Shown: piece after piece, positions 1 through 8,369 of the stretch
How the letters are laid out: each line of letters begins with the position of its first letter
Position numbering within the stretch: position 1 is the first letter of the stretch
Sequence record: NC_028925.1
Length of the DNA stretch: 64,000 nucleotides
Direction: 5' to 3' (one strand)
From: Escherichia phage vB_EcoM_VR25
Translations under genes and position numbers: made by a program
The notes under the pieces: model-generated
Told to the model about the DNA's origin: nothing
Database searches by the model: none
What the model saw: the letters and a program-made list of their open reading frames with translations, nothing else

Positions 1-2
1 GA

Positions 3-770
3 AAACTGAAAACCTCTTTAACCGTTGAGCTTGCGCAAGACCTGGAAGCAAATGGTTTCGACGCAACAGATTTTATTGATAATATCCTTGGTATTCAAAT
101 GGCAGAGGAAATTAATAAGGACGTACTGCAATCTTTAATTACCGTGAGTTCGCGTTTTAAAGTCCAGGGTGTTTCCGAAAAAGGTGTACTTAATCTTACT
201 GATGCCGCTTATGATAATGCTCAGGACCGTGCTCGAACTCTGTATTATTATATGTGCGAAATGAATTCCGCAGTTCAACGTCAGACTTCGTTCGCTGGTA
301 CATATGCAGTCGCTTCTTCCCGTTGTGCAGCTATTTTAGCAGCTTCTGGCTGGGTTGAGAAAAAGGAAGACCAAGATGAATTGGCCTATGGTGTTCTGAA
401 GAACGGTTTGCCACTTTATGCAGATATGAATAGCCCGTGCGATTATGTTATTGTTGGTGTAAATGCTGATATGGGTGAAGGTCAGACAGTCGCATCTTTG
501 TATTATGCGCCTTATACGGAAGGTCTTAGTGAAGTTGATGATGAGGGTGACACCTCGGTTGGGGAATTCAAGGTTATCGTTGACCCCGAAAGTTTACAGC
601 CTACAGTTGCACTGTTAGCTCGTTATGCACTGACTGCAAACCCTTACACCGTTGCTAAAGACGATAAAGAAGCTCGCATTATTGATGGAGCTGATATGGA
701 TAAGATGGCTAACCAAAGCCAATTGAGTTCTTATCTTGGTGTTAAACTTCCACCACTGGAAAAAGAATAA
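3..770 (+). CDS. 24: capsid vertex protein gp24 (paralog of major capsid protein gp23), 3' portion; gene begins upstream of window
   Basis: Frame open from window edge (KLKTSLTVELAQDLEANGFDATDF... continuing into listed ORF 99..770); sits immediately upstream of rnlB as in T4; cannot exclude gp23 from sequence alone. Confidence 0.6.
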   Translation, partial: KLKTSLTVELAQDLEANGFDATDFIDNILGIQMAEEINKDVLQSLITVSSRFKVQGVSEKGVLNLTDAAYDNAQDRARTLYYYMCEMNSAVQRQTSFAGTYAVASSRCAAILAASGWVEKKEDQDELAYGVLKNGLPLYADMNSPCDYVIVGVNADMGEGQTVASLYYAPYTEGLSEVDDEGDTSVGEFKVIVDPESLQPTVALLARYALTANPYTVAKDDKEARIIDGADMDKMANQSQLSSYLGVKLPPLEKE

Positions 771-790
771 GGGCCTTGCGGCCCTTTTTA
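771..790. terminator. hairpin terminator after gene 24 (gggccttgcggccc + T-tract), usable in both directions
   Basis: Perfect 5-bp GC stem with ttgc loop followed by TTTTTA; A/T-rich on the other side for rnlB. Confidence 0.7.
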
Positions 791-1795
791 TTAACTAATT
801 AATGCAATCCAAACATGTCTTAATGTATCTCTTACATTTGCAATGAGTTGCTTTTTAACTTCAACAGGATTTTCCGTCTGGGTTAATTCAAGGCCTTCCC
901 GACCTGCTTCTTCCAAAATATCTTGAACAGTCAAACCCATTACCTTTCCAAAATCCTTTGGCGTTACTTCCCCAATTTTACTGATAACATTGTTGATGCG
1001 GTTAACAGTCACATAATCAGTGAACTTCCATAAAATGTCCAGGTCTTCCTGGGACAACACAACAGCAGCCTTGATAGGCTTATCAGACTTTTTCTTTTCG
1101 CTGAATTTAGAGTTCTTACATTTAATCGCTACGCGCTCACCATTAGGTAACCAGGCCGGAGTATCAGGTTTAAGAACATACCCTTCTGCAGTGAATACTT
1201 TACCTTCAACCTTTGCGTCAAAATCGGTGGTATTCGCGGTAGTCAAACCCGCATTATCTACTGTAAAATTGTAATCAGGAACCACAGAATCCAGGTCGTT
1301 AGGGAGCTTAATCAAGTCTTCAAAGCTACCCGTAGCCAGTCGTGGGGCAACCTTAAATTTATGGATAATACAGAAGGCTTCCATCAATGAATCAGTCAAA
1401 ACAGATTCAGAGCCATCTTCCTTAGTAACGCGGATATCAAATACATAGAAATCTTTGTCACCATAATCAACATTCTTCTGGATACCCGCCCCGGCAAACT
1501 CACCATAAATTTGGTATGATTGATAATTAATATCCTGTAAAAGTCTCTGCACAGTTTTAATGGAATCTGCATAGTTCTTGAGTACAATTTCGTAGCCATA
1601 GAAATCTTCTGCAGGTAGGATAGGTCCAGTGCGTTTCGCACATGTCACATTGTCTTGTTCAATGATTAATGAAAAGTTGGTGCCATGAATTTTCTCACGC
1701 GCTACCCATTCACCGCTGGTGAAGCCTTGCAGGCGAATCTTTTCAATGAACTTGTTGTTATAGTGATTTTCAAGGCTGTTGTATTTCTTAAACAT
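791..1795 (-). CDS. rnlB: RNA ligase 2 (Rnl2)
   Basis: 334 aa; nucleotidyltransferase motif I EKIHGTN near N-terminus; same size as T4 Rnl2; synteny. Confidence 0.9.
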
Positions 1796-1892
1796 AATCT
1801 CTCACTTTTGATGTTATAAATATCATTATAAATTATACCCTCTATACTTTCTTTCTCTGAAAGGAATTAATCGTATCGGAAGGTCTAGAACC

Positions 1893-1920
1893 ATTATACC
1901 ACAATTTTATTTGAAGCAAA
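1893..1920 (-). promoter_or_regulatory. MotA-dependent middle promoter candidate upstream of rnlB
   Basis: Minus strand reads tttTGCTTCA-N13-TATAAT (MotA box plus -10). Confidence 0.5.
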
Positions 1921-1924
1921 AAGG

Positions 1925-2188
1925 TCAGAATTTTACATACAATGTTGGCTTGTTTTCTTGCCAATTATAATTCCAGGTAAATGATGTAAATTTTTCTGCC
2001 CGCAGAAAATCAGATATCTTTGTGCGGTTTCCTTCTTCATACTCTTTTTCAGAAACTGCCATATTAACAGCATCTTTGCCATTCTCGGCAGCGGCAATAG
2101 CCACTTTGCGAAATATAACAATAAAGTCATTTGCAACTTTATCTTGTGATTCTTTAGCCATTTGGCGTAGTTCTTCTGCGAATGTCAT
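1925..2188 (-). CDS. hypothetical protein (24.2-position)
   Basis: 87 aa ORF, co-oriented with rnlB. Confidence 0.45.
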   Translation of the reverse strand: MTFAEELRQMAKESQDKVANDFIVIFRKVAIAAAENGKDAVNMAVSEKEYEEGNRTKISDFLRAEKFTSFTWNYNWQENKPTLYVKF

Positions 2189-2388
2189 TTCTTCACCTTT
2201 TTGTTAAACAACCGCTTGCGGTATACGATTTTCTCTCGTGACTTGAACTTTTCTTTAGCTTGTTCAACATCAACCCATGCCTTTGCCATTTCTTTAGCGG
2301 TCCCGCCTAATACCTTGGCGATTTCAATAAATGTCATACCAGTTTCATGCAGGAAATGTACTTTAACCTTATTCATAACCATTCTCAT
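2185..2388 (-). CDS. hypothetical small protein with possible helix-turn-helix (24.3-position)
   Basis: 67 aa; segment GMTFIEIAKVLGGTAKEMAKAW resembles an HTH; basic C-terminus; 4-nt overlap with downstream ORF. Confidence 0.45.
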   Translation of the reverse strand: MRMVMNKVKVHFLHETGMTFIEIAKVLGGTAKEMAKAWVDVEQAKEKFKSREKIVYRKRLFNKKVKK

Positions 2389-2495
2389 GTTGAGTTAGTG
2401 AAGCTATCTTAACATGGAATTTTTAACTTGTAAACAGGAGTTTTATGCCAGATATTCTTGAACGTAAAGATTTACTTTACAACCGCCACTACTTT

Positions 2496-2503
2496 AATAA
2501 ATA
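2496..2503 (+). promoter_or_regulatory. late-promoter-like box (AATAAATA, one mismatch to TATAAATA) upstream of collagen-like gene
   Basis: Located ~25 nt upstream of the ATG at 2526. Confidence 0.3.
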
Positions 2504-2525
2504 TTAAATTAATAACGGAGGATTT

Positions 2526-4106
2526 ATGACACAAACTACAGGTGAAAAAGAAGGCGTATTTTACGGTTATTCTCTTTATGATTTGAATAAAGAAAAACTA
2601 ATAACTTTTGATGAATTACTTACAGGTGTTCAAGGAGAGCCCGGAGAAAATGGCGATATTGGACCAAAAGGCCCTATTGGTTTAACAGGTCCTCAAGGAC
2701 CGAAAGGTGATACCGGGTCAAAAGGTATTAAAGGTGATACCGGCCCTCAAGGTATTCAAGGGCCCGCTGGCCCACAAGGTCCTCAGGGAGAAAAGGGAGT
2801 CCAAGGTTTAGCTGGAGTCCAAGGCATTCAAGGACCAGTCGGCCACCAAGGAGTGAAAGGTGATACCGGCCCTCAAGGTATTCAAGGACCGAAAGGTGAT
2901 ACAGGTCCTCAAGGCCCACAAGGTGACAAAGGCGAAATGGGTCCGGTGGGTCCGGCTGGTCTAACATGGAAAGGAACATGGGACGCTGATGTAGAGTATT
3001 CTATAAATGAGGCTGTCGGATATGGTGGTTCTTTATATTTCGCCAAAACAAAAGTTCCTAATGGCGAAATACCAACACCGACTTCTAACTATTGGGGTGT
3101 TTTGGCTACCGAGGGTCCACAAGGTCCACAAGGTCAACAAGGTCTTAAAGGTGATACCGGTCCTCAAGGTATTCAAGGACCTGTAGGGCCTGTAGGGCAG
3201 CAGGGTATTCAGGGACCAAGAGGACTTCAAGGGTCAGAAGGTGAAATAGGACCGCGGGGTATTCAAGGGCTAAAAGGCGAAACTGGGCCCGCTGGTCCAC
3301 AGGGTATTCAAGGGCTAAAAGGCGAGGTGGGTGCTCAGGGTCCTTCTGGTTCTCCTGGACTTACAGGACCAGAAGGACCTCGTGGGTTAACAGGCGAAGC
3401 TGGAGCTCAAGGACCTCGTGGTGCTATAGGTCCTATCGGTTTAACAGGTCCTATCGGTTTAACGGGTCCTCAAGGTATTCAAGGTCCTAAAGGTGATACA
3501 GGTCCTCAAGGCTTACAAGGTCCTCAAGGCTTACGAGGTATTCAAGGAGCTCCTGGAGTAAAAGGAGAAGCGGGTGCACAAGGTCCTATCGGTTTAACAG
3601 GTCCGAAAGGTGATACCGGTCCTCAAGGTATTCAAGGACCGAAAGGTGATACAGGAGCACAAGGTCCTATTGGTTTAACTGGACCTAAAGGTGATACAGG
3701 CCCGAGCCCTTATACTGTTTATAATTATTCTAATGTTGCAACTGGTTATGCTGAAATGGTTATGCCTGGTGTGTCATCAAACACAGTATTTAGACTTCGT
3801 TCAGTTGGAACTAATATAGAATATAGTGTTCTAAGTAAAGGCGGAGCTAATAGATATGTAGATTGGCACTTTTCAATTCCAAGTGTTTCCGGCAATACAG
3901 TAAGTACTAATAGCGGAACTAATACATTAACTCCTACAGGTAATTTTACTATTGTGGCGACCGCTTATAATGGACTAAGGGGATTTACAATAACATTATG
4001 CGAGTGGGGTTCAAGAGCTATTGTTGATATCACTGTTTATCATCATGGGCGTTCGGGAGACACAACCAAAGCTGTGGCTATTCGTATGACTACTACAAAA
4101 TACTAA
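2526..4106 (+). CDS. collagen-like triple-helix repeat protein with globular C-terminal domain
   Basis: 526 aa; about 100 uninterrupted Gly-X-Y triplets in two blocks separated by a ~50-aa W/Y-rich non-collagen segment; ~130-aa non-repetitive C-terminal domain; AGGA-type RBS (ggagga) 6 nt upstream of ATG. Confidence 0.8.
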   Translation: MTQTTGEKEGVFYGYSLYDLNKEKLITFDELLTGVQGEPGENGDIGPKGPIGLTGPQGPKGDTGSKGIKGDTGPQGIQGPAGPQGPQGEKGVQGLAGVQGIQGPVGHQGVKGDTGPQGIQGPKGDTGPQGPQGDKGEMGPVGPAGLTWKGTWDADVEYSINEAVGYGGSLYFAKTKVPNGEIPTPTSNYWGVLATEGPQGPQGQQGLKGDTGPQGIQGPVGPVGQQGIQGPRGLQGSEGEIGPRGIQGLKGETGPAGPQGIQGLKGEVGAQGPSGSPGLTGPEGPRGLTGEAGAQGPRGAIGPIGLTGPIGLTGPQGIQGPKGDTGPQGLQGPQGLRGIQGAPGVKGEAGAQGPIGLTGPKGDTGPQGIQGPKGDTGAQGPIGLTGPKGDTGPSPYTVYNYSNVATGYAEMVMPGVSSNTVFRLRSVGTNIEYSVLSKGGANRYVDWHFSIPSVSGNTVSTNSGTNTLTPTGNFTIVATAYNGLRGFTITLCEWGSRAIVDITVYHHGRSGDTTKAVAIRMTTTKY

Positions 4107-4115
4107 GGAGCTTTA

Positions 4116-4979
4116 ATGGAACCGGTTAAAGCTGTGTTAGAGCCTGATGTAATAGATGTGGAATATGGTAATACATACTCGGCTACTGTAACTCTGTCTC
4201 CTATAGAAAATATTCCAGATGGTTCCGTGATAAGATATGATTGGGTTGTTAATAACAAGTTCGTTGGTACGGGTGAAGCTACTCGTACCACCCAACCATC
4301 TCAGACCGGAAATTATGTATTATCATGTAGAGTATTCATTACTCCGCCTAATGAAAATACTGTAATGATAACAACTAATAAATCATATGGGTATGTATAT
4401 AAAAATTCCGATACAAGTCCAGTAGATGCAGAAATATTATATGATAACAAGATATACCAAATAGGAAGCAAAGTTAGATTATTAGCCGTTGCCAATAACC
4501 CAGATACCAACTTTGTTAAAGGTATTATATGGAAGGATGCTGATGGTAAGATAATAGGTATAGGTCGGGAATATATCCATACAATGCAATCAGAGTATGA
4601 TATAGTTCGAGCTAAAGTTACAATGGATTCGCCTATAAGAGATGAATTTAGTAAGAACTTTACTATACATTTGTACGCTATAAATGTTCAAGAAGGAACA
4701 TGTATAAGATATATTCATCCTTTAGACCACAGGGATGCAGGATTTATCTGGTGTGGTTGGTGGGTTATGGATGAAATCCAACGAGCGATAAAACTTGGGC
4801 TGGATTGGAAAAATCCAAAAGAGCTAGATTTAAATTACAAGTGTGATTTAGAGACATTAGCGTTATTGCTCAAGACATATCCTGAAGCCGAAGTTCAAGA
4901 ATCAAGACACGGATATATAATAACCAGACTACAAATTGAGACTGGCGAAATATATAAAAAACCATATGAAGTAAAATAA
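4116..4979 (+). CDS. Hoc-like outer-capsid decoration protein paralog (Ig-like N-terminal region plus Hoc-type capsid-binding C-terminal domain)
   Basis: 287 aa; C-terminal ~90 aa (YIHPLDHRDAGFIWCGWWVMDEIQ...YPEAEVQESRHGYI) clearly homologous to C-terminus of ORF 5003..6106; starts 9 nt after collagen-like gene. Confidence 0.75.
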   Translation: MEPVKAVLEPDVIDVEYGNTYSATVTLSPIENIPDGSVIRYDWVVNNKFVGTGEATRTTQPSQTGNYVLSCRVFITPPNENTVMITTNKSYGYVYKNSDTSPVDAEILYDNKIYQIGSKVRLLAVANNPDTNFVKGIIWKDADGKIIGIGREYIHTMQSEYDIVRAKVTMDSPIRDEFSKNFTIHLYAINVQEGTCIRYIHPLDHRDAGFIWCGWWVMDEIQRAIKLGLDWKNPKELDLNYKCDLETLALLLKTYPEAEVQESRHGYIITRLQIETGEIYKKPYEVK

Positions 4980-5000
4980 AAGGGCCTTGCGGCCCTTTAT
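4980..5000. terminator. bidirectional hairpin terminator between convergent Hoc-like paralog and hoc
   Basis: gggccttgcggccc stem-loop identical to the one at 771..784, flanked by T-rich tracts on both strands. Confidence 0.7.
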
Positions 5001-5002
5001 CA

Positions 5003-6106
5003 TTAATAGACGTAATCGTATATAATACCAGCTTCCAATGCCGAACGGTGGACGATACGACCGTTACGAGATTCCTGTACATCAACTTCCGGGTAATCAC
5101 TAAGCATTTTGGCTAATACCGCCAGATGACAATAATATGGTGTATCCTCTTTAGTGGCTTTTTTCCAATCTGTACTTTCAGATGTTAATTTCTGAATAGC
5201 GTCCATAACCCACCAGCCACACCAAATATACGCAGTATTACGGACAGGAAGTGGATGTACATAAATTAAAGGGCATTCTTCTGGAATAACAGGCTCTGCT
5301 TCTTCCACAGTAACGGACTTAGTACCTGATTTAACTGAATTTGTAAAGCCTGTTTGTGATGCGGTAACTTCACAAGTATATGTCTTCAAGCCTTCAGTGG
5401 ATTCCGTTATTGCTCTTGTTGCTTCTGTTGAGTTGTCGTCCCATTTATATGCAAGAGTCGCACCAGGGATAGCAGGGGACACAGAAGCTGTCAAATTGAA
5501 TGGAACATCAACCGTTGCAGTAGACGGGCCTGAAATCTCAACAGTGAACTCAGGAAATGTATTGTTTTCGACCGTAACAACTACTGCCTCAGGATTAATA
5601 ACTTGATTGTCATAATCTGCCGCAGAAACGGTAATTTGGCAAGTTAAAGAAACTGGTCCTGCGTCAGTAGCAGCACGAGTAATATCTTTAGTAATTTCAC
5701 CAGTAGACCACAAATATGCTATTGTAGCTCCACCGGGTTCACCTGTTACATTAGCCGAAGCGTTATATTCCTGACCAACTTTAACAGTAGGAGTGGAAGT
5801 TGTTAATGTTGCTGTTGCAGCCATAGTCTTATTATTAACCGTAATGGTTGTTTGAGCCTCTGCCGTTTCAGGCTCTCCTTCTTCCGGCGTTGTGGTGGCA
5901 ACAACTTTAATTACTTTTGAACCTGCTGGGCCAGCTGCAATATAATCCATAGTAGCAATAACAGAATCTTGTGGAACATCATCAACGGTCCATACAAAAG
6001 ATTCGGTACCAGCGACAGCGGCTCCAGCCCCAGTAGCAGTAAAATTAGTTGTTGCACCTATAACCGCTGTAGGTGTTAAAGGGGCAATTGATACAGTATA
6101 AGCCAT
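5003..6106 (-). CDS. hoc: highly immunogenic outer capsid protein Hoc
   Basis: 367 aa; T/S/A-rich tandem Ig-like segments; C-terminal YVHPLPVRNTAYIWCGWWVMDAIQ...YPEVDVQESRNGRIVH matches remembered T4 Hoc capsid-binding domain; synteny next to inh. Confidence 0.85.
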   Translation of the reverse strand: MAYTVSIAPLTPTAVIGATTNFTATGAGAAVAGTESFVWTVDDVPQDSVIATMDYIAAGPAGSKVIKVVATTTPEEGEPETAEAQTTITVNNKTMAATATLTTSTPTVKVGQEYNASANVTGEPGGATIAYLWSTGEITKDITRAATDAGPVSLTCQITVSAADYDNQVINPEAVVVTVENNTFPEFTVEISGPSTATVDVPFNLTASVSPAIPGATLAYKWDDNSTEATRAITESTEGLKTYTCEVTASQTGFTNSVKSGTKSVTVEEAEPVIPEECPLIYVHPLPVRNTAYIWCGWWVMDAIQKLTSESTDWKKATKEDTPYYCHLAVLAKMLSDYPEVDVQESRNGRIVHRSALEAGIIYDYVY

Positions 6107-6134
6107 AAAACCTCCAAGGGCCGAAGCCCTTTTG

Positions 6135-6815
6135 TTAATTTAAACGAATAAAAGATGAGTTACGTGTTTCACGAATAAGAATGGAACCGTCACGATTGAT
6201 ATAGTAAATCAAACTAAACAATGTTTGGTGTGCGCTTGCATGAGTAAAAGAAGTAGGGCGTTCTTTCCAGTCCGGGGTCTCTTTAATCCACTGGTAAATC
6301 CACCAAGGGAGAGTACAATATCCAGGAGCTTTGCCCAGCATAAGCAGATTGGGGCTAAAATTTTTAGGCAGTGTAAATTTAGGAGTTTCAGCTTCGATGA
6401 TTTGAGCGACAGCTTCTTCAAAGTCTTCGGAAACAAACGGCACTTCAATTTCAACGAGTTTAACTTCTGATTCAGGAACAACTTCCTGGGTAACTTCGAC
6501 TACTTCAACGGGTGCTTCTGGAGCATCAAACAAAAGAACAGCTTCAGGTTTAGCTGATTCTTCACCTTCAAACTTACCACCTGATAATTCATCATCGGCA
6601 TTAATAAGGTCGGTGATGCTTAAGCCTTCGTTATCGTCCGGCATAGGCATGTCAGCAAATGCTTGCAGCCCGGCTTCCAGGTCAATCAACATATTATCGA
6701 AAGTTTTTGTTTTCTTAACATCAACACCAAGCGATGATGCATATTCAGCTAATTTTTCTTTGGCTTCTTTTTTCTCGAGGACACGAATTTCCTCAATATA
6801 GTTCTTATCAATCAT
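6135..6815 (-). CDS. inh: Inh-like protein (inhibitor of prohead protease), by position
   Basis: 226 aa acidic protein between hoc and uvsW as in T4; assignment by synteny and size only. Confidence 0.5.
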   Translation of the reverse strand: MIDKNYIEEIRVLEKKEAKEKLAEYASSLGVDVKKTKTFDNMLIDLEAGLQAFADMPMPDDNEGLSITDLINADDELSGGKFEGEESAKPEAVLLFDAPEAPVEVVEVTQEVVPESEVKLVEIEVPFVSEDFEEAVAQIIEAETPKFTLPKNFSPNLLMLGKAPGYCTLPWWIYQWIKETPDWKERPTSFTHASAHQTLFSLIYYINRDGSILIRETRNSSFIRLN

Positions 6816-6833
6816 AATGAACCTCGGTTATTG

Positions 6834-6841
6834 TATAAATA
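6834..6841 (+). promoter_or_regulatory. T4 late promoter TATAAATA upstream of uvsW
   Basis: Exact TATAAATA ~30 nt upstream of uvsW start. Confidence 0.6.
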
Positions 6842-6869
6842 TAGATATATTTATTACCTTGGAATCATC

Positions 6870-8369
6870 ATGGATATCAAAATCAACTTTTTAAATTTTA
6901 GTCATGTACATGTTGAATGTGAAGATAGTATCTTCTATGAACTCCGTGACTATTTCAGTTTTGAAGCCGAAAACTATCGGTTTAACCCTAAATTCAGAGC
7001 GGGAGTTTGGGACGGACGTATCCGTCTCCTGGATTATAACCGTAAATTACCGTACGGCTTAGTTAACCAGATTAAAAAATTCGCTGACCAGTTTGGTTAT
7101 TCATTTTGGATTGACCCTCAAATCACCGAGAAAGAGGAAATCTCCCGTGTGGATTTCGATAAATGGGTCGAGTCAAAAGAAATCTATTCAGGCCATACCA
7201 AGATTACTCCCCATTGGTACCAAACAGACGCCGTATACGACGGTCTGGTCAACAGAAGAAAGATATTGAACTTACCTACGTCTGCAGGTAAAAGCCTCAT
7301 CCAGGCGCTCCTGGCGCGATATTATCTCGAGAACTATGAAGGCAAGGTTCTTATCCTTGTACCTACAACCGCGCTCGTTGACCAGATGATTAACGATTTC
7401 GTCGATTACAGATTGTTCCCTCGAGAAGCCTGTCTCGGTATCCGCTCCGGAACTAAACGTGATTCGGATGCAATGATTTATGTGTCTACTTATCAGACGG
7501 CAGTAAAACAACCTAAAGAATGGTTTTCACAGTTCGGTCAGTTTATGAATGATGAATGTCATATGGCTACTGGTAAATCCATTTCGACCGTTATCGAAGG
7601 CCTGACTAATTGTATGTTTAAATTTGGTCTCTCTGGTTCTCTCCGTGATGGCAAAGCAAACCTTATGCAATATATGGGTCTGTTTGGTGATATCTTTAAA
7701 CCCGTATCCACATCCCAATTAATGGATGAAGGCCAAGTTACTGACCTTAAGATAAATAGTATTTTCCTTCGTTACCCTGATGAATTCACCATTAAAATGA
7801 AAGGCAAATCTTATCAAGATGAAATCAAGGTAATTACAAAAGCTACGCGTAGAAATAAATGGGTAACAAACCTTGCACTCAAGCTTGCTAAAAAAGATGA
7901 AAACGTCTTTTTGATGTTTAAGAATATCGAGCACGGTAAATCGATGTTTGAAATGCTTAAGGAAGCTGGTCATGAGAATGTGTATTATGTTTCCGGGGAA
8001 GTTGATACAGAAACACGTAACGCATTAAAGGTCATGGCAGAGAATGGAAAGGGAATTATCGTTGTAGCTTCATATGGTGTATTCTCGACGGGAATTTCCG
8101 TTAAAAACCTCCATCATATTATTTTCGCTCACCCGGTCAAGTCAAAGGTAATTGTACTCCAGACAATTGGTCGTGTACTTCGAAAACATGAATCCAAATC
8201 GACCGCAAACGTGTGGGACATCGTGGACGATATGGGGGTCAAACCCAAATCAGCAAACGCTAAAAAGAAATATGTTCACTTGAACTTTGCACTGAAACAC
8301 GCATTAGAACGTATTCAGCGGTATGCAGACGAAAAATTCAATTATATCATTAAACAGGTGGAAATATAA
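6870..8369 (+). CDS. uvsW: UvsW SF2 DNA/RNA helicase
   Basis: Start chosen at MDIKINF within ORF 6831..8369; Walker A LNLPTSAGKS, DECH box; T4 UvsW N-terminus remembered as MDIKVHF. Confidence 0.9.
   Translation: MDIKINFLNFSHVHVECEDSIFYELRDYFSFEAENYRFNPKFRAGVWDGRIRLLDYNRKLPYGLVNQIKKFADQFGYSFWIDPQITEKEEISRVDFDKWVESKEIYSGHTKITPHWYQTDAVYDGLVNRRKILNLPTSAGKSLIQALLARYYLENYEGKVLILVPTTALVDQMINDFVDYRLFPREACLGIRSGTKRDSDAMIYVSTYQTAVKQPKEWFSQFGQFMNDECHMATGKSISTVIEGLTNCMFKFGLSGSLRDGKANLMQYMGLFGDIFKPVSTSQLMDEGQVTDLKINSIFLRYPDEFTIKMKGKSYQDEIKVITKATRRNKWVTNLALKLAKKDENVFLMFKNIEHGKSMFEMLKEAGHENVYYVSGEVDTETRNALKVMAENGKGIIVVASYGVFSTGISVKNLHHIIFAHPVKSKVIVLQTIGRVLRKHESKSTANVWDIVDDMGVKPKSANAKKKYVHLNFALKHALERIQRYADEKFNYIIKQVEI

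Follow-up and report, generated by a model that had tools for sequence, protein, structure and literature searches.

Escherichia phage vB_EcoM_VR25 carries in its T4-type capsid gene region a gene for a collagen-like fibre protein, followed directly by a gene for a second Hoc-type capsid protein, here called hoc2. The pair raises the question of where such a fibre would sit on the phage particle and what its Hoc-type neighbour contributes. We analysed a stretch of 64,000 nucleotides of this genome (NC_028925.1), referred to below as the window, which belongs to a Gaprivervirus and is 97.6% identical to phage VR7 across 30-50 kb. An earlier note, made by a model from the letters of the window, had proposed a trimeric collagen-like fibre, possibly displayed on the capsid. 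The reading we favour, to which we give a probability of about 50% for the whole chain of steps, is that the protein is a late, virion-exposed accessory adhesin fibre acting with Hoc2 on the capsid.

As a gene the fibre is not new; it is an already annotated member of a phage collagen-like fibre family. VR7 gp196 and gp197 have been annotated since 2010 as a 'collagen triple helix repeat domain protein' beside a protein 'similar to T4 Hoc', and the pair is also annotated in VR26, VR5, KIT01, ESCO10, JS10 (EpJS10_0176/0177) and Kosakonia phage 305, and present without annotation in TH15. The public labels on the orthologues are 'collagen-like' or 'tail fiber', beside 'hoc-2'. A full-text literature search, which did not extend to the VR7 genome paper, found no study of the fibre and Hoc pair, and the partnership appears to be undescribed.

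The fibre gene is intact and encodes a protein of 526 amino acids (aa) and 52.6 kDa (Table 1). It contains 104 Gly-X-Y triplets in two unbroken runs (38 and 66), close to the roughly 100 counted in the earlier note, and matches Pfam Collagen (PF01391) with 168.9 bits against a cut-off of 27.2 (E 1.9e-50). The note had asked whether the open reading frame (ORF) might be interrupted in a corrected assembly. It is not an assembly artefact, because an identical protein is encoded by a 170,822-bp IMG/VR genome and the frame is open in all 11 orthologues tabulated beside the window (335-539 aa; the VR7 copy is apparently truncated at its C-terminus).

Along its full length the protein matches the profile of phrog_5073 ('tail fiber protein'; E 4.2e-154), with its N-terminal anchor at one profile end (E 0.0085) and its C-terminal head at the other (E 9.7e-22). 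The anchor, N1, is 97-100% identical across six T4-type phages and 61% identical in Kosakonia 305, and is recognisable at the N-terminus of collagen proteins in Vequintavirinae/Certrevirus. In both collagen blocks proline takes 39% of the X positions, and glutamine takes 35-37% of the Y positions (37% in block 1); 13 KGD/KGE motifs are present in total, five of them in block 1. This composition is typical of bacterial and phage collagens; the chains would form a trimeric triple helix.

The W/Y-rich segment of about 50 aa between the blocks had been delimited correctly by the earlier note, which missed its CBM5/12 fold. The segment, or knob, has the small beta fold of CBM5/12 modules. At the sequence level the window knob reaches 14.2 bits against a Pfam gathering score of 26.2, the orthologous knob of JS10 reaches 27.6 bits, and a profile built from 35 knob homologues matches 1ED7 (E 9.3e-7). 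The aromatic residues W150, W153, Y159 and W192 are present. The Trp of the 'GWEP' motif is essential for chitin binding by the chitinase A1 module; in our reading of the alignment it falls on a Glu in the window knob ('GEIP'). Similar knobs are present in solved phage tail fibres (9rkv_M, 9b45_2 and 8ke9).

The non-repetitive C-terminal domain of about 130 aa was likewise found where the earlier note had placed it, and is folded as supposed, with an all-beta fold modelled by AlphaFold2 (AF2) at a pLDDT of 91.9. The suggested fold was wrong: structural comparison did not support a C1q/TNF/BclA-type jelly-roll, and the head is a 10-strand beta-sandwich. What it shares with BclA of the Bacillus anthracis exosporium and with C1q/TNF heads is a collagen-like stalk capped by an all-beta domain of about 130 aa.

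The product of the gene at 4116-4979 has the C-terminal capsid-binding domain and the Ig-like domains that define the Hoc family, which bears out the earlier description of it as Hoc-type. Compared with T4 Hoc (PDB 5vf3_Z), its C-terminus aligns with the capsid-binding end up to the last residues (E 3.1e-26), and the protein matches phrog_1149 with E 1.2e-57. From the sequence, Hoc2 is read as two Ig-like domains followed by a capsid-binding domain from about aa 196. It shares both domain types with T4 Hoc but is shorter, with two Ig-like domains instead of three. Identity with the resident Hoc is 28% across 268 aa, and Hoc2 differs from it in lying on the opposite strand and in being always coupled to a fibre gene. 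Kinship of Hoc2 with the Vequintavirinae neighbour family phrog_4998 was considered and rejected (hhalign probability 2.9%).

In at least six genera of Straboviridae a fibre gene has a Hoc-like gene as its next neighbour downstream, in the same orientation; these are Gaprivervirus, Dhakavirus, Kanagawavirus, Gelderlandvirus (CGG4-1), Roskildevirus (Cronus) and Ishigurovirus (Aeromonas phage 65). The two genes are separated by -4 to +29 nt, with 127 nt in VR7, and in all 12 tabulated genomes they occur together. For three phages, Kosakonia 305, Cronus and PspYZU05, the examined locus has no Hoc-like ORF besides the fibre-linked one, of which Cronus retains just the first Ig-like domain and the capsid-binding domain. 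The Cronus pair lies immediately 3' of gp23-gp24 on the same strand; that of Aeromonas phage 65 adjoins tk, away from gp24.

The fibre and Hoc2 parts of the 12 genomes were compared all against all. Seven of the genomes have a fibre N-terminus of class N1 and the other five one of class N3, the two classes being unrelated. The first Ig-like domain of Hoc2 also falls into two classes, whose membership equals that of N1 and N3 in all 12 genomes with none mixed, and the Hoc2 capsid-binding domain is homologous in all of them. The head domain, although encoded between the fibre N-terminus and Hoc2, shuffles independently of N1 and N3. Orthologue heads form four unrelated or barely related classes: class A heads are joined to N1 in Kosakonia 305, VR26 and the window, and in JS10 to N3, class B is found in VR7, VR5 and ESCO10, class C in KIT01 and class D in Aeromonas phage 65. 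A Pfam scan of N1, N3 and head classes B, C and D matched no family.

The relatives most like the window, VR7, VR26, VR5, KIT01, ESCO10, JS10 and Kosakonia 305, share its locus, gene order and domain plan. In VR26 the head is 100% identical and the Hoc2 N-terminal region 99% identical. The orthologues differ in triplet number (23-104) and head class, JS10 has the other anchor class, and no function was found to have been assigned to any of them. Aeromonas phage 65 has the same two-gene module, ST65p147 ('similar to collagen-like proteins') with hoc-2 ('second copy of the hoc gene'), whose stop and start codons overlap. It shares the CBM5/12-type knob between collagen blocks and a partner with the Hoc capsid-binding domain, but belongs to the Emmerichvirinae and has an N3 anchor, a class-D head and a position beside tk, not gp24. 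At the equivalent position of Pseudomonas phage PspYZU05 (Jiangsuvirus; 4501-5165), a 50-aa N3-type fragment and a 133-aa Hoc-like ORF are apparently the decayed remains of such a cassette.

Table 1. Features of the fibre cassette and its surroundings in the window. Spans of the collagen blocks were computed at 0.286 nm per residue.
Feature	Position	Strand	Remarks
Collagen-like fibre gene	2526..4106	+	526 aa, 52.6 kDa; intact ORF
N1 anchor (GVFYGYSLYDL...ITFDELL)	2526..2624	+	aa 1-33; presumed virion-attachment end
Collagen block 1	2625..2966	+	aa 34-147; 38 Gly-X-Y; as a triple helix would span about 33 nm
CBM5/12-fold knob (W/Y-rich segment)	2967..3113	+	aa 148-196
Collagen block 2	3114..3707	+	aa 197-394; 66 Gly-X-Y; as a triple helix would span about 57 nm
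In-frame insert relative to VR26	3585..3638	+	54 nt (18 aa, 6 triplets); flanking sequence near-identical
Class-A head domain	3708..4103	+	aa 395-526; 10-strand beta-sandwich
hoc2 (Hoc paralogue)	4116..4979	+	287 aa; starts 9 nt past the fibre stop
Late-promoter-like box AATAAATA	2496..2503	+	one mismatch from T4 late promoter TATAAATA; 22 nt ahead of fibre ATG
Shine-Dalgarno GGAGGA	2517..2522	+	3 nt ahead of fibre ATG; read from sequence
Mini-ORF (MPDILERKDLLYNRHYFNKY)	2445..2507	+	20 aa; own AGGAG; within leader of about 80 nt
GC-rich hairpin AAAGGGCC-TTGC-GGCCCTTT	4979..4998	.	between convergent hoc2 and hoc
Canonical hoc	5003..6106	-	367 aa; convergent with hoc2
rnlB	791..1795	-	
24.2 homologue	1925..2188		
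24.3 homologue (DUF2774)	2185..2388		

The gene order confirms that the pair is extra relative to T4, and that rnlB and hoc lie on the other strand, as the earlier note had it. Because homologues of 24.2 and 24.3 are both present, the pair is an addition between 24.3 and hoc and not a replacement. Most close relatives, among them SP18 and VR20, lack the cassette; their similarity to the window ends about 50 nt into the 24.3-proximal intergenic region. A link to the low-temperature phenotype of the VR phages was considered and is unlikely, because VR20, reportedly a low-temperature phage, lacks the cassette.

Relatives outside the Straboviridae were found with parts of the fibre. In Drexlerviridae, genes for proteins with a class-A head lie between cement/decoration genes and the major capsid gene. 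In Vequintavirinae, genes for N1-type proteins lie 3' of the capsid and Inh-like genes, directly before the head-tail adaptor gene and far from the tail-fibre cluster. The gene is in the tail-fibre cluster in none of the three phage groups (Straboviridae, Drexlerviridae, Vequintavirinae). In phage CB7, the neighbouring products CB7_10, which has a collagen domain, and CB7_11/12 are virion components by mass spectrometry (MS) (PMC7344957). The N-terminus of CB7_12 looked like N1 by eye, a likeness that was rejected, as the N1 profile detects neither CB7_12 nor the CR8 mini-collagen.

Searches with the full-length protein mostly returned the repeats. Of 7142 protein matches most were to collagen repeats, with a best identity of 47%, and from these seven head homologues and many knob homologues were taken for alignments. 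A word-indexed protein search with the head domain alone gave no match. A full-length scan of viral contigs yielded mostly repeat-only relatives, and the head or N1 anchor was seen there only in the window's own genome, VR26 and VR5, plus one N1 match on a 153-kb contig.

Late expression, the next step of the favoured reading, is indicated in part. The ribosome-binding site and the late-promoter-like box named in the earlier note are both there (Table 1). The AATAAATA box occurs five times in the window, which is not above chance; two of the copies lie 22 nt ahead of the fibre ATG and 32 nt ahead of inh, presumably a late head gene as in T4. By comparison, nine of the 11 exact TATAAATA boxes in the window lie 17-30 nt 5' of the ATG of a large ORF, and a tenth at 63 nt. 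The box upstream of the fibre gene is kept in four relatives, and in TH15 the fibre gene is preceded by an exact TATAAATA. A sigma-70 scan of the region gave matches no more frequent than expected by chance. The hairpin between hoc2 and hoc is likely to be a terminator for both genes, and the fibre gene and hoc2 are likely to be co-transcribed late.

From these elements a structure can be proposed. The fibre would be a triple helix of three chains, about 90 nm in length, with the conserved N-terminal anchor at one end, an exchangeable beta-sandwich head at the far end and a trimeric CBM5/12-fold knob one third along its length. The fibre would be made late, from a single transcript with its dedicated paralogue Hoc2. 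T4 Hoc is located at the capsid hexamer centres through its capsid-binding domain, and Hoc2, through the same retained domain, would take Hoc sites on the head. The fibre would then be displayed from the head, held by or beside the outermost Ig-like domain of Hoc2, and would be an accessory adhesin with a long reach, binding glycans or cell surfaces. More tentatively, the fibre and Hoc2 may constitute a widespread, so far undescribed two-component head-fibre system of T4-type phages, in which Hoc2 is a capsid-docking adaptor that holds the N-terminus of the trimer of about 90 nm by its outer Ig-like domain, and the fibre's head and repeat number are freely swapped; we regard this generalisation as possible rather than probable.

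Capsid display, which the earlier note had suggested, is argued for because the fibre and Hoc pair recurs in six genera and related genes are placed in head modules in two further groups; its support consists of this gene context. Several points weigh against the proposal. No proteomic, microscopy or expression report on the fibre protein was found in the accessible literature, and no late-promoter box was found upstream of the fibre gene in JS10 and KIT01. N1 is 100% identical between the window and VR7 while their Hoc2 N-domains share 37%, which is odd for a tight interface, and the two-class pattern could reflect two old cassette lineages and one head exchange instead of co-adaptation. A monomeric Hoc2 holding a trimeric fibre requires an asymmetric joint, for which T4 gp35, itself monomeric, is a precedent. 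Moreover, no Hoc-like ORF was found in the examined Vequintavirinae loci with N1 collagen proteins, and therefore N1 does not depend on Hoc2 everywhere.

The family label of phrog_5073, 'tail fiber', also weighs against a place on the head, and leads to the view that the protein is an auxiliary tail or neck fibre with its N-terminus on the collar, neck or baseplate, Hoc2 being merely a co-regulated neighbour that decorates the head. The RefSeq name 'tail fiber protein' agrees, as do the CBM5/12-like knobs of the solved tail fibres named above; the Vequintavirinae N1 gene directly 5' of the head-tail adaptor gene would fit a neck whisker, and collagen motifs are common in tail fibres (PMC3368898; PMC7344957). 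However, the 'tail fiber' labels are automatic and no experiment was found behind them, the gene lies outside the tail-fibre and baseplate cluster in all three phage groups, and the strict pairing with a Hoc paralogue in six genera, with matching classes, is left unexplained. We consider a tail or neck fibre unlikely, though it comes first among the rival readings. A head fibre that binds the capsid directly by its own N-terminus, for example at a local three-fold position, would fit the head-module context equally well, and Hoc2 would then be an alternative Hoc from a shared operon, competing for hexamer centres. The presence of N1 without Hoc2 in Vequintavirinae and the invariance of N1 beside Hoc2 N-domains with identity down to 37% are in its favour, and SPP1 gp12 binds capsids directly (PMC7602432). 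Yet one N1 would have to recognise both the T4-type gp23 and the Vequintavirinae capsid protein, and nothing in this view explains why the classes of the fibre N-terminus and of the Hoc2 N-domain agree. Direct binding is distinctly improbable in our judgement.

That the protein is no part of the virion, being released at lysis or intracellular, or that the gene is a decaying accessory without current function, we hold to be very improbable. The cassette is indeed dispensable, because most close relatives are without it, and the VR7 copy is apparently truncated at its C-terminus while PspYZU05 has fragments only. Against this, frame and domain order have survived numerous in-frame changes of the repeats, even between distant genera, both the architecture of the fibre and its capsid-binding partner indicate a structural role, and the neighbouring collagen-like proteins of CB7 were confirmed in virions by MS (PMC7344957).

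The nearest described systems each resemble a part of the proposed one. SPP1 gp12 is a collagen-like trimer on a phage capsid, at hexamer centres, which is the type of site used by Hoc in T4 (review PMC7602432). No homology between it and the fibre was seen beyond the Gly-X-Y repeats. SPP1 gp12 is a tiny protein of about 6.6 kDa with few triplets, has no knob or head, and binds the capsid unaided. EPclA and EPclB of E. coli prophage are described as trimers with a collagen stalk between globular ends, likely side tail fibres and proposed adhesins (Ghosh et al. 2012, PMC3368898). The window fibre differs in its N1, CBM5/12 and beta-sandwich modules and in its position beside hoc. EPclA and EPclB reportedly contain PfN, PCoil and PfC domains and are sited in lambdoid tail modules; no Pfam match to PfN, PCoil or PfC was found in the window fibre.

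Where capsid proteins that adhere to surfaces such as mucus are discussed, Hoc is the standard example, and it is used for phage display. If some T4-type phages carry long, exchangeable collagen fibres on the head through a dedicated Hoc paralogue, adhesion by the head would be more elaborate, and would evolve more readily, than is assumed at present, and the phage head would be a second, reprogrammable adhesion organ separate from the tail fibres. The family's 'tail fiber' labels would then be misleading in host-range prediction, and the joint between Hoc2 and the fibre could provide a ready-made scaffold by which trimeric proteins are displayed on T4-type capsids. The finding is routine if the protein is instead a tail or neck fibre of the ordinary accessory kind.

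The collagen repeats are a hotspot of length variation, as the earlier note expected, because a 54-nt indel separates the window from VR26 and the orthologues range from 335 to 539 aa, with 23-104 triplets. The DNA of the fibre gene is rich in families of direct repeats with periods of 9, 18 and 36 nt, and the difference from VR26 is a repeat-mediated in-frame indel. The cassette is also a mosaic: window positions 1-2700, comprising its 5' end and flank, are VR7-like at 98.9%, positions 3572-8000, comprising its 3' part with hoc, inh and uvsW, are VR26-like at 98-99%, and the junction is located within the collagen repeats. In VR7 (locus 3520-4930) the head is 100 aa long, compared with 139 aa in VR5, its final 19 or so residues deviate, and hoc2 is preceded by the gap of 127 nt. 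Such an early end has the look of a frameshift, whether from genuine decay or from an error in sequencing the repeat-rich gene.

The leader of about 80 nt that contains the mini-ORF is specific to VR7-type cassettes and is kept in VR7, VR26, VR5 and ESCO10. It is absent from KIT01 and JS10, in which the fibre ATG stands at the position of the mini-ORF ATG; the mini-ORF may encode a leader peptide or be left over from an older 5' end. Further along the window, the AATAAATA box of inh (6848-6855, minus strand) lies back to back with an exact TATAAATA (6834-6841, plus strand) ahead of uvsW, an arrangement that looks like a compact divergent late-promoter pair for inh and uvsW.

Further observations concern collagen loci of other phages. 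In Escherichia phage AugustePiccard (locus 3612-4901) a 'putative head outer capsid protein' is encoded just 5' of the collagen gene; it has a GDSL/SGNH esterase domain (PF13472, 4e-13), belongs to a 'head decoration' PHROG and may be a capsid-displayed enzyme. On a metagenomic Vequintavirinae contig, a gene at 115-717, directly 5' of a large collagen gene, matches the N-domain of T4 Inh (PF26097), and a comparably sized gene occupies the corresponding place in phage CR8 (1987-2601), just 3' of the major capsid gene. If the CR8 gene is Inh-like, an Inh-like gene and an N1-type collagen fibre would adjoin in both Vequintavirinae and T4-type phages. Certrevirus-type phages have up to three consecutive collagen-like genes in the interval from capsid to adaptor (CR8 2662-8362; metagenomic contig 778-6395), with products of about 1090, about 105 and about 430-460 aa. 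Finally, the start of the window falls within the second of two tandem paralogues of gp24, the capsid vertex protein (window 99-770), and this duplication is also annotated in VR7, JS10, CGG4-1, Cronus and Kosakonia 305.

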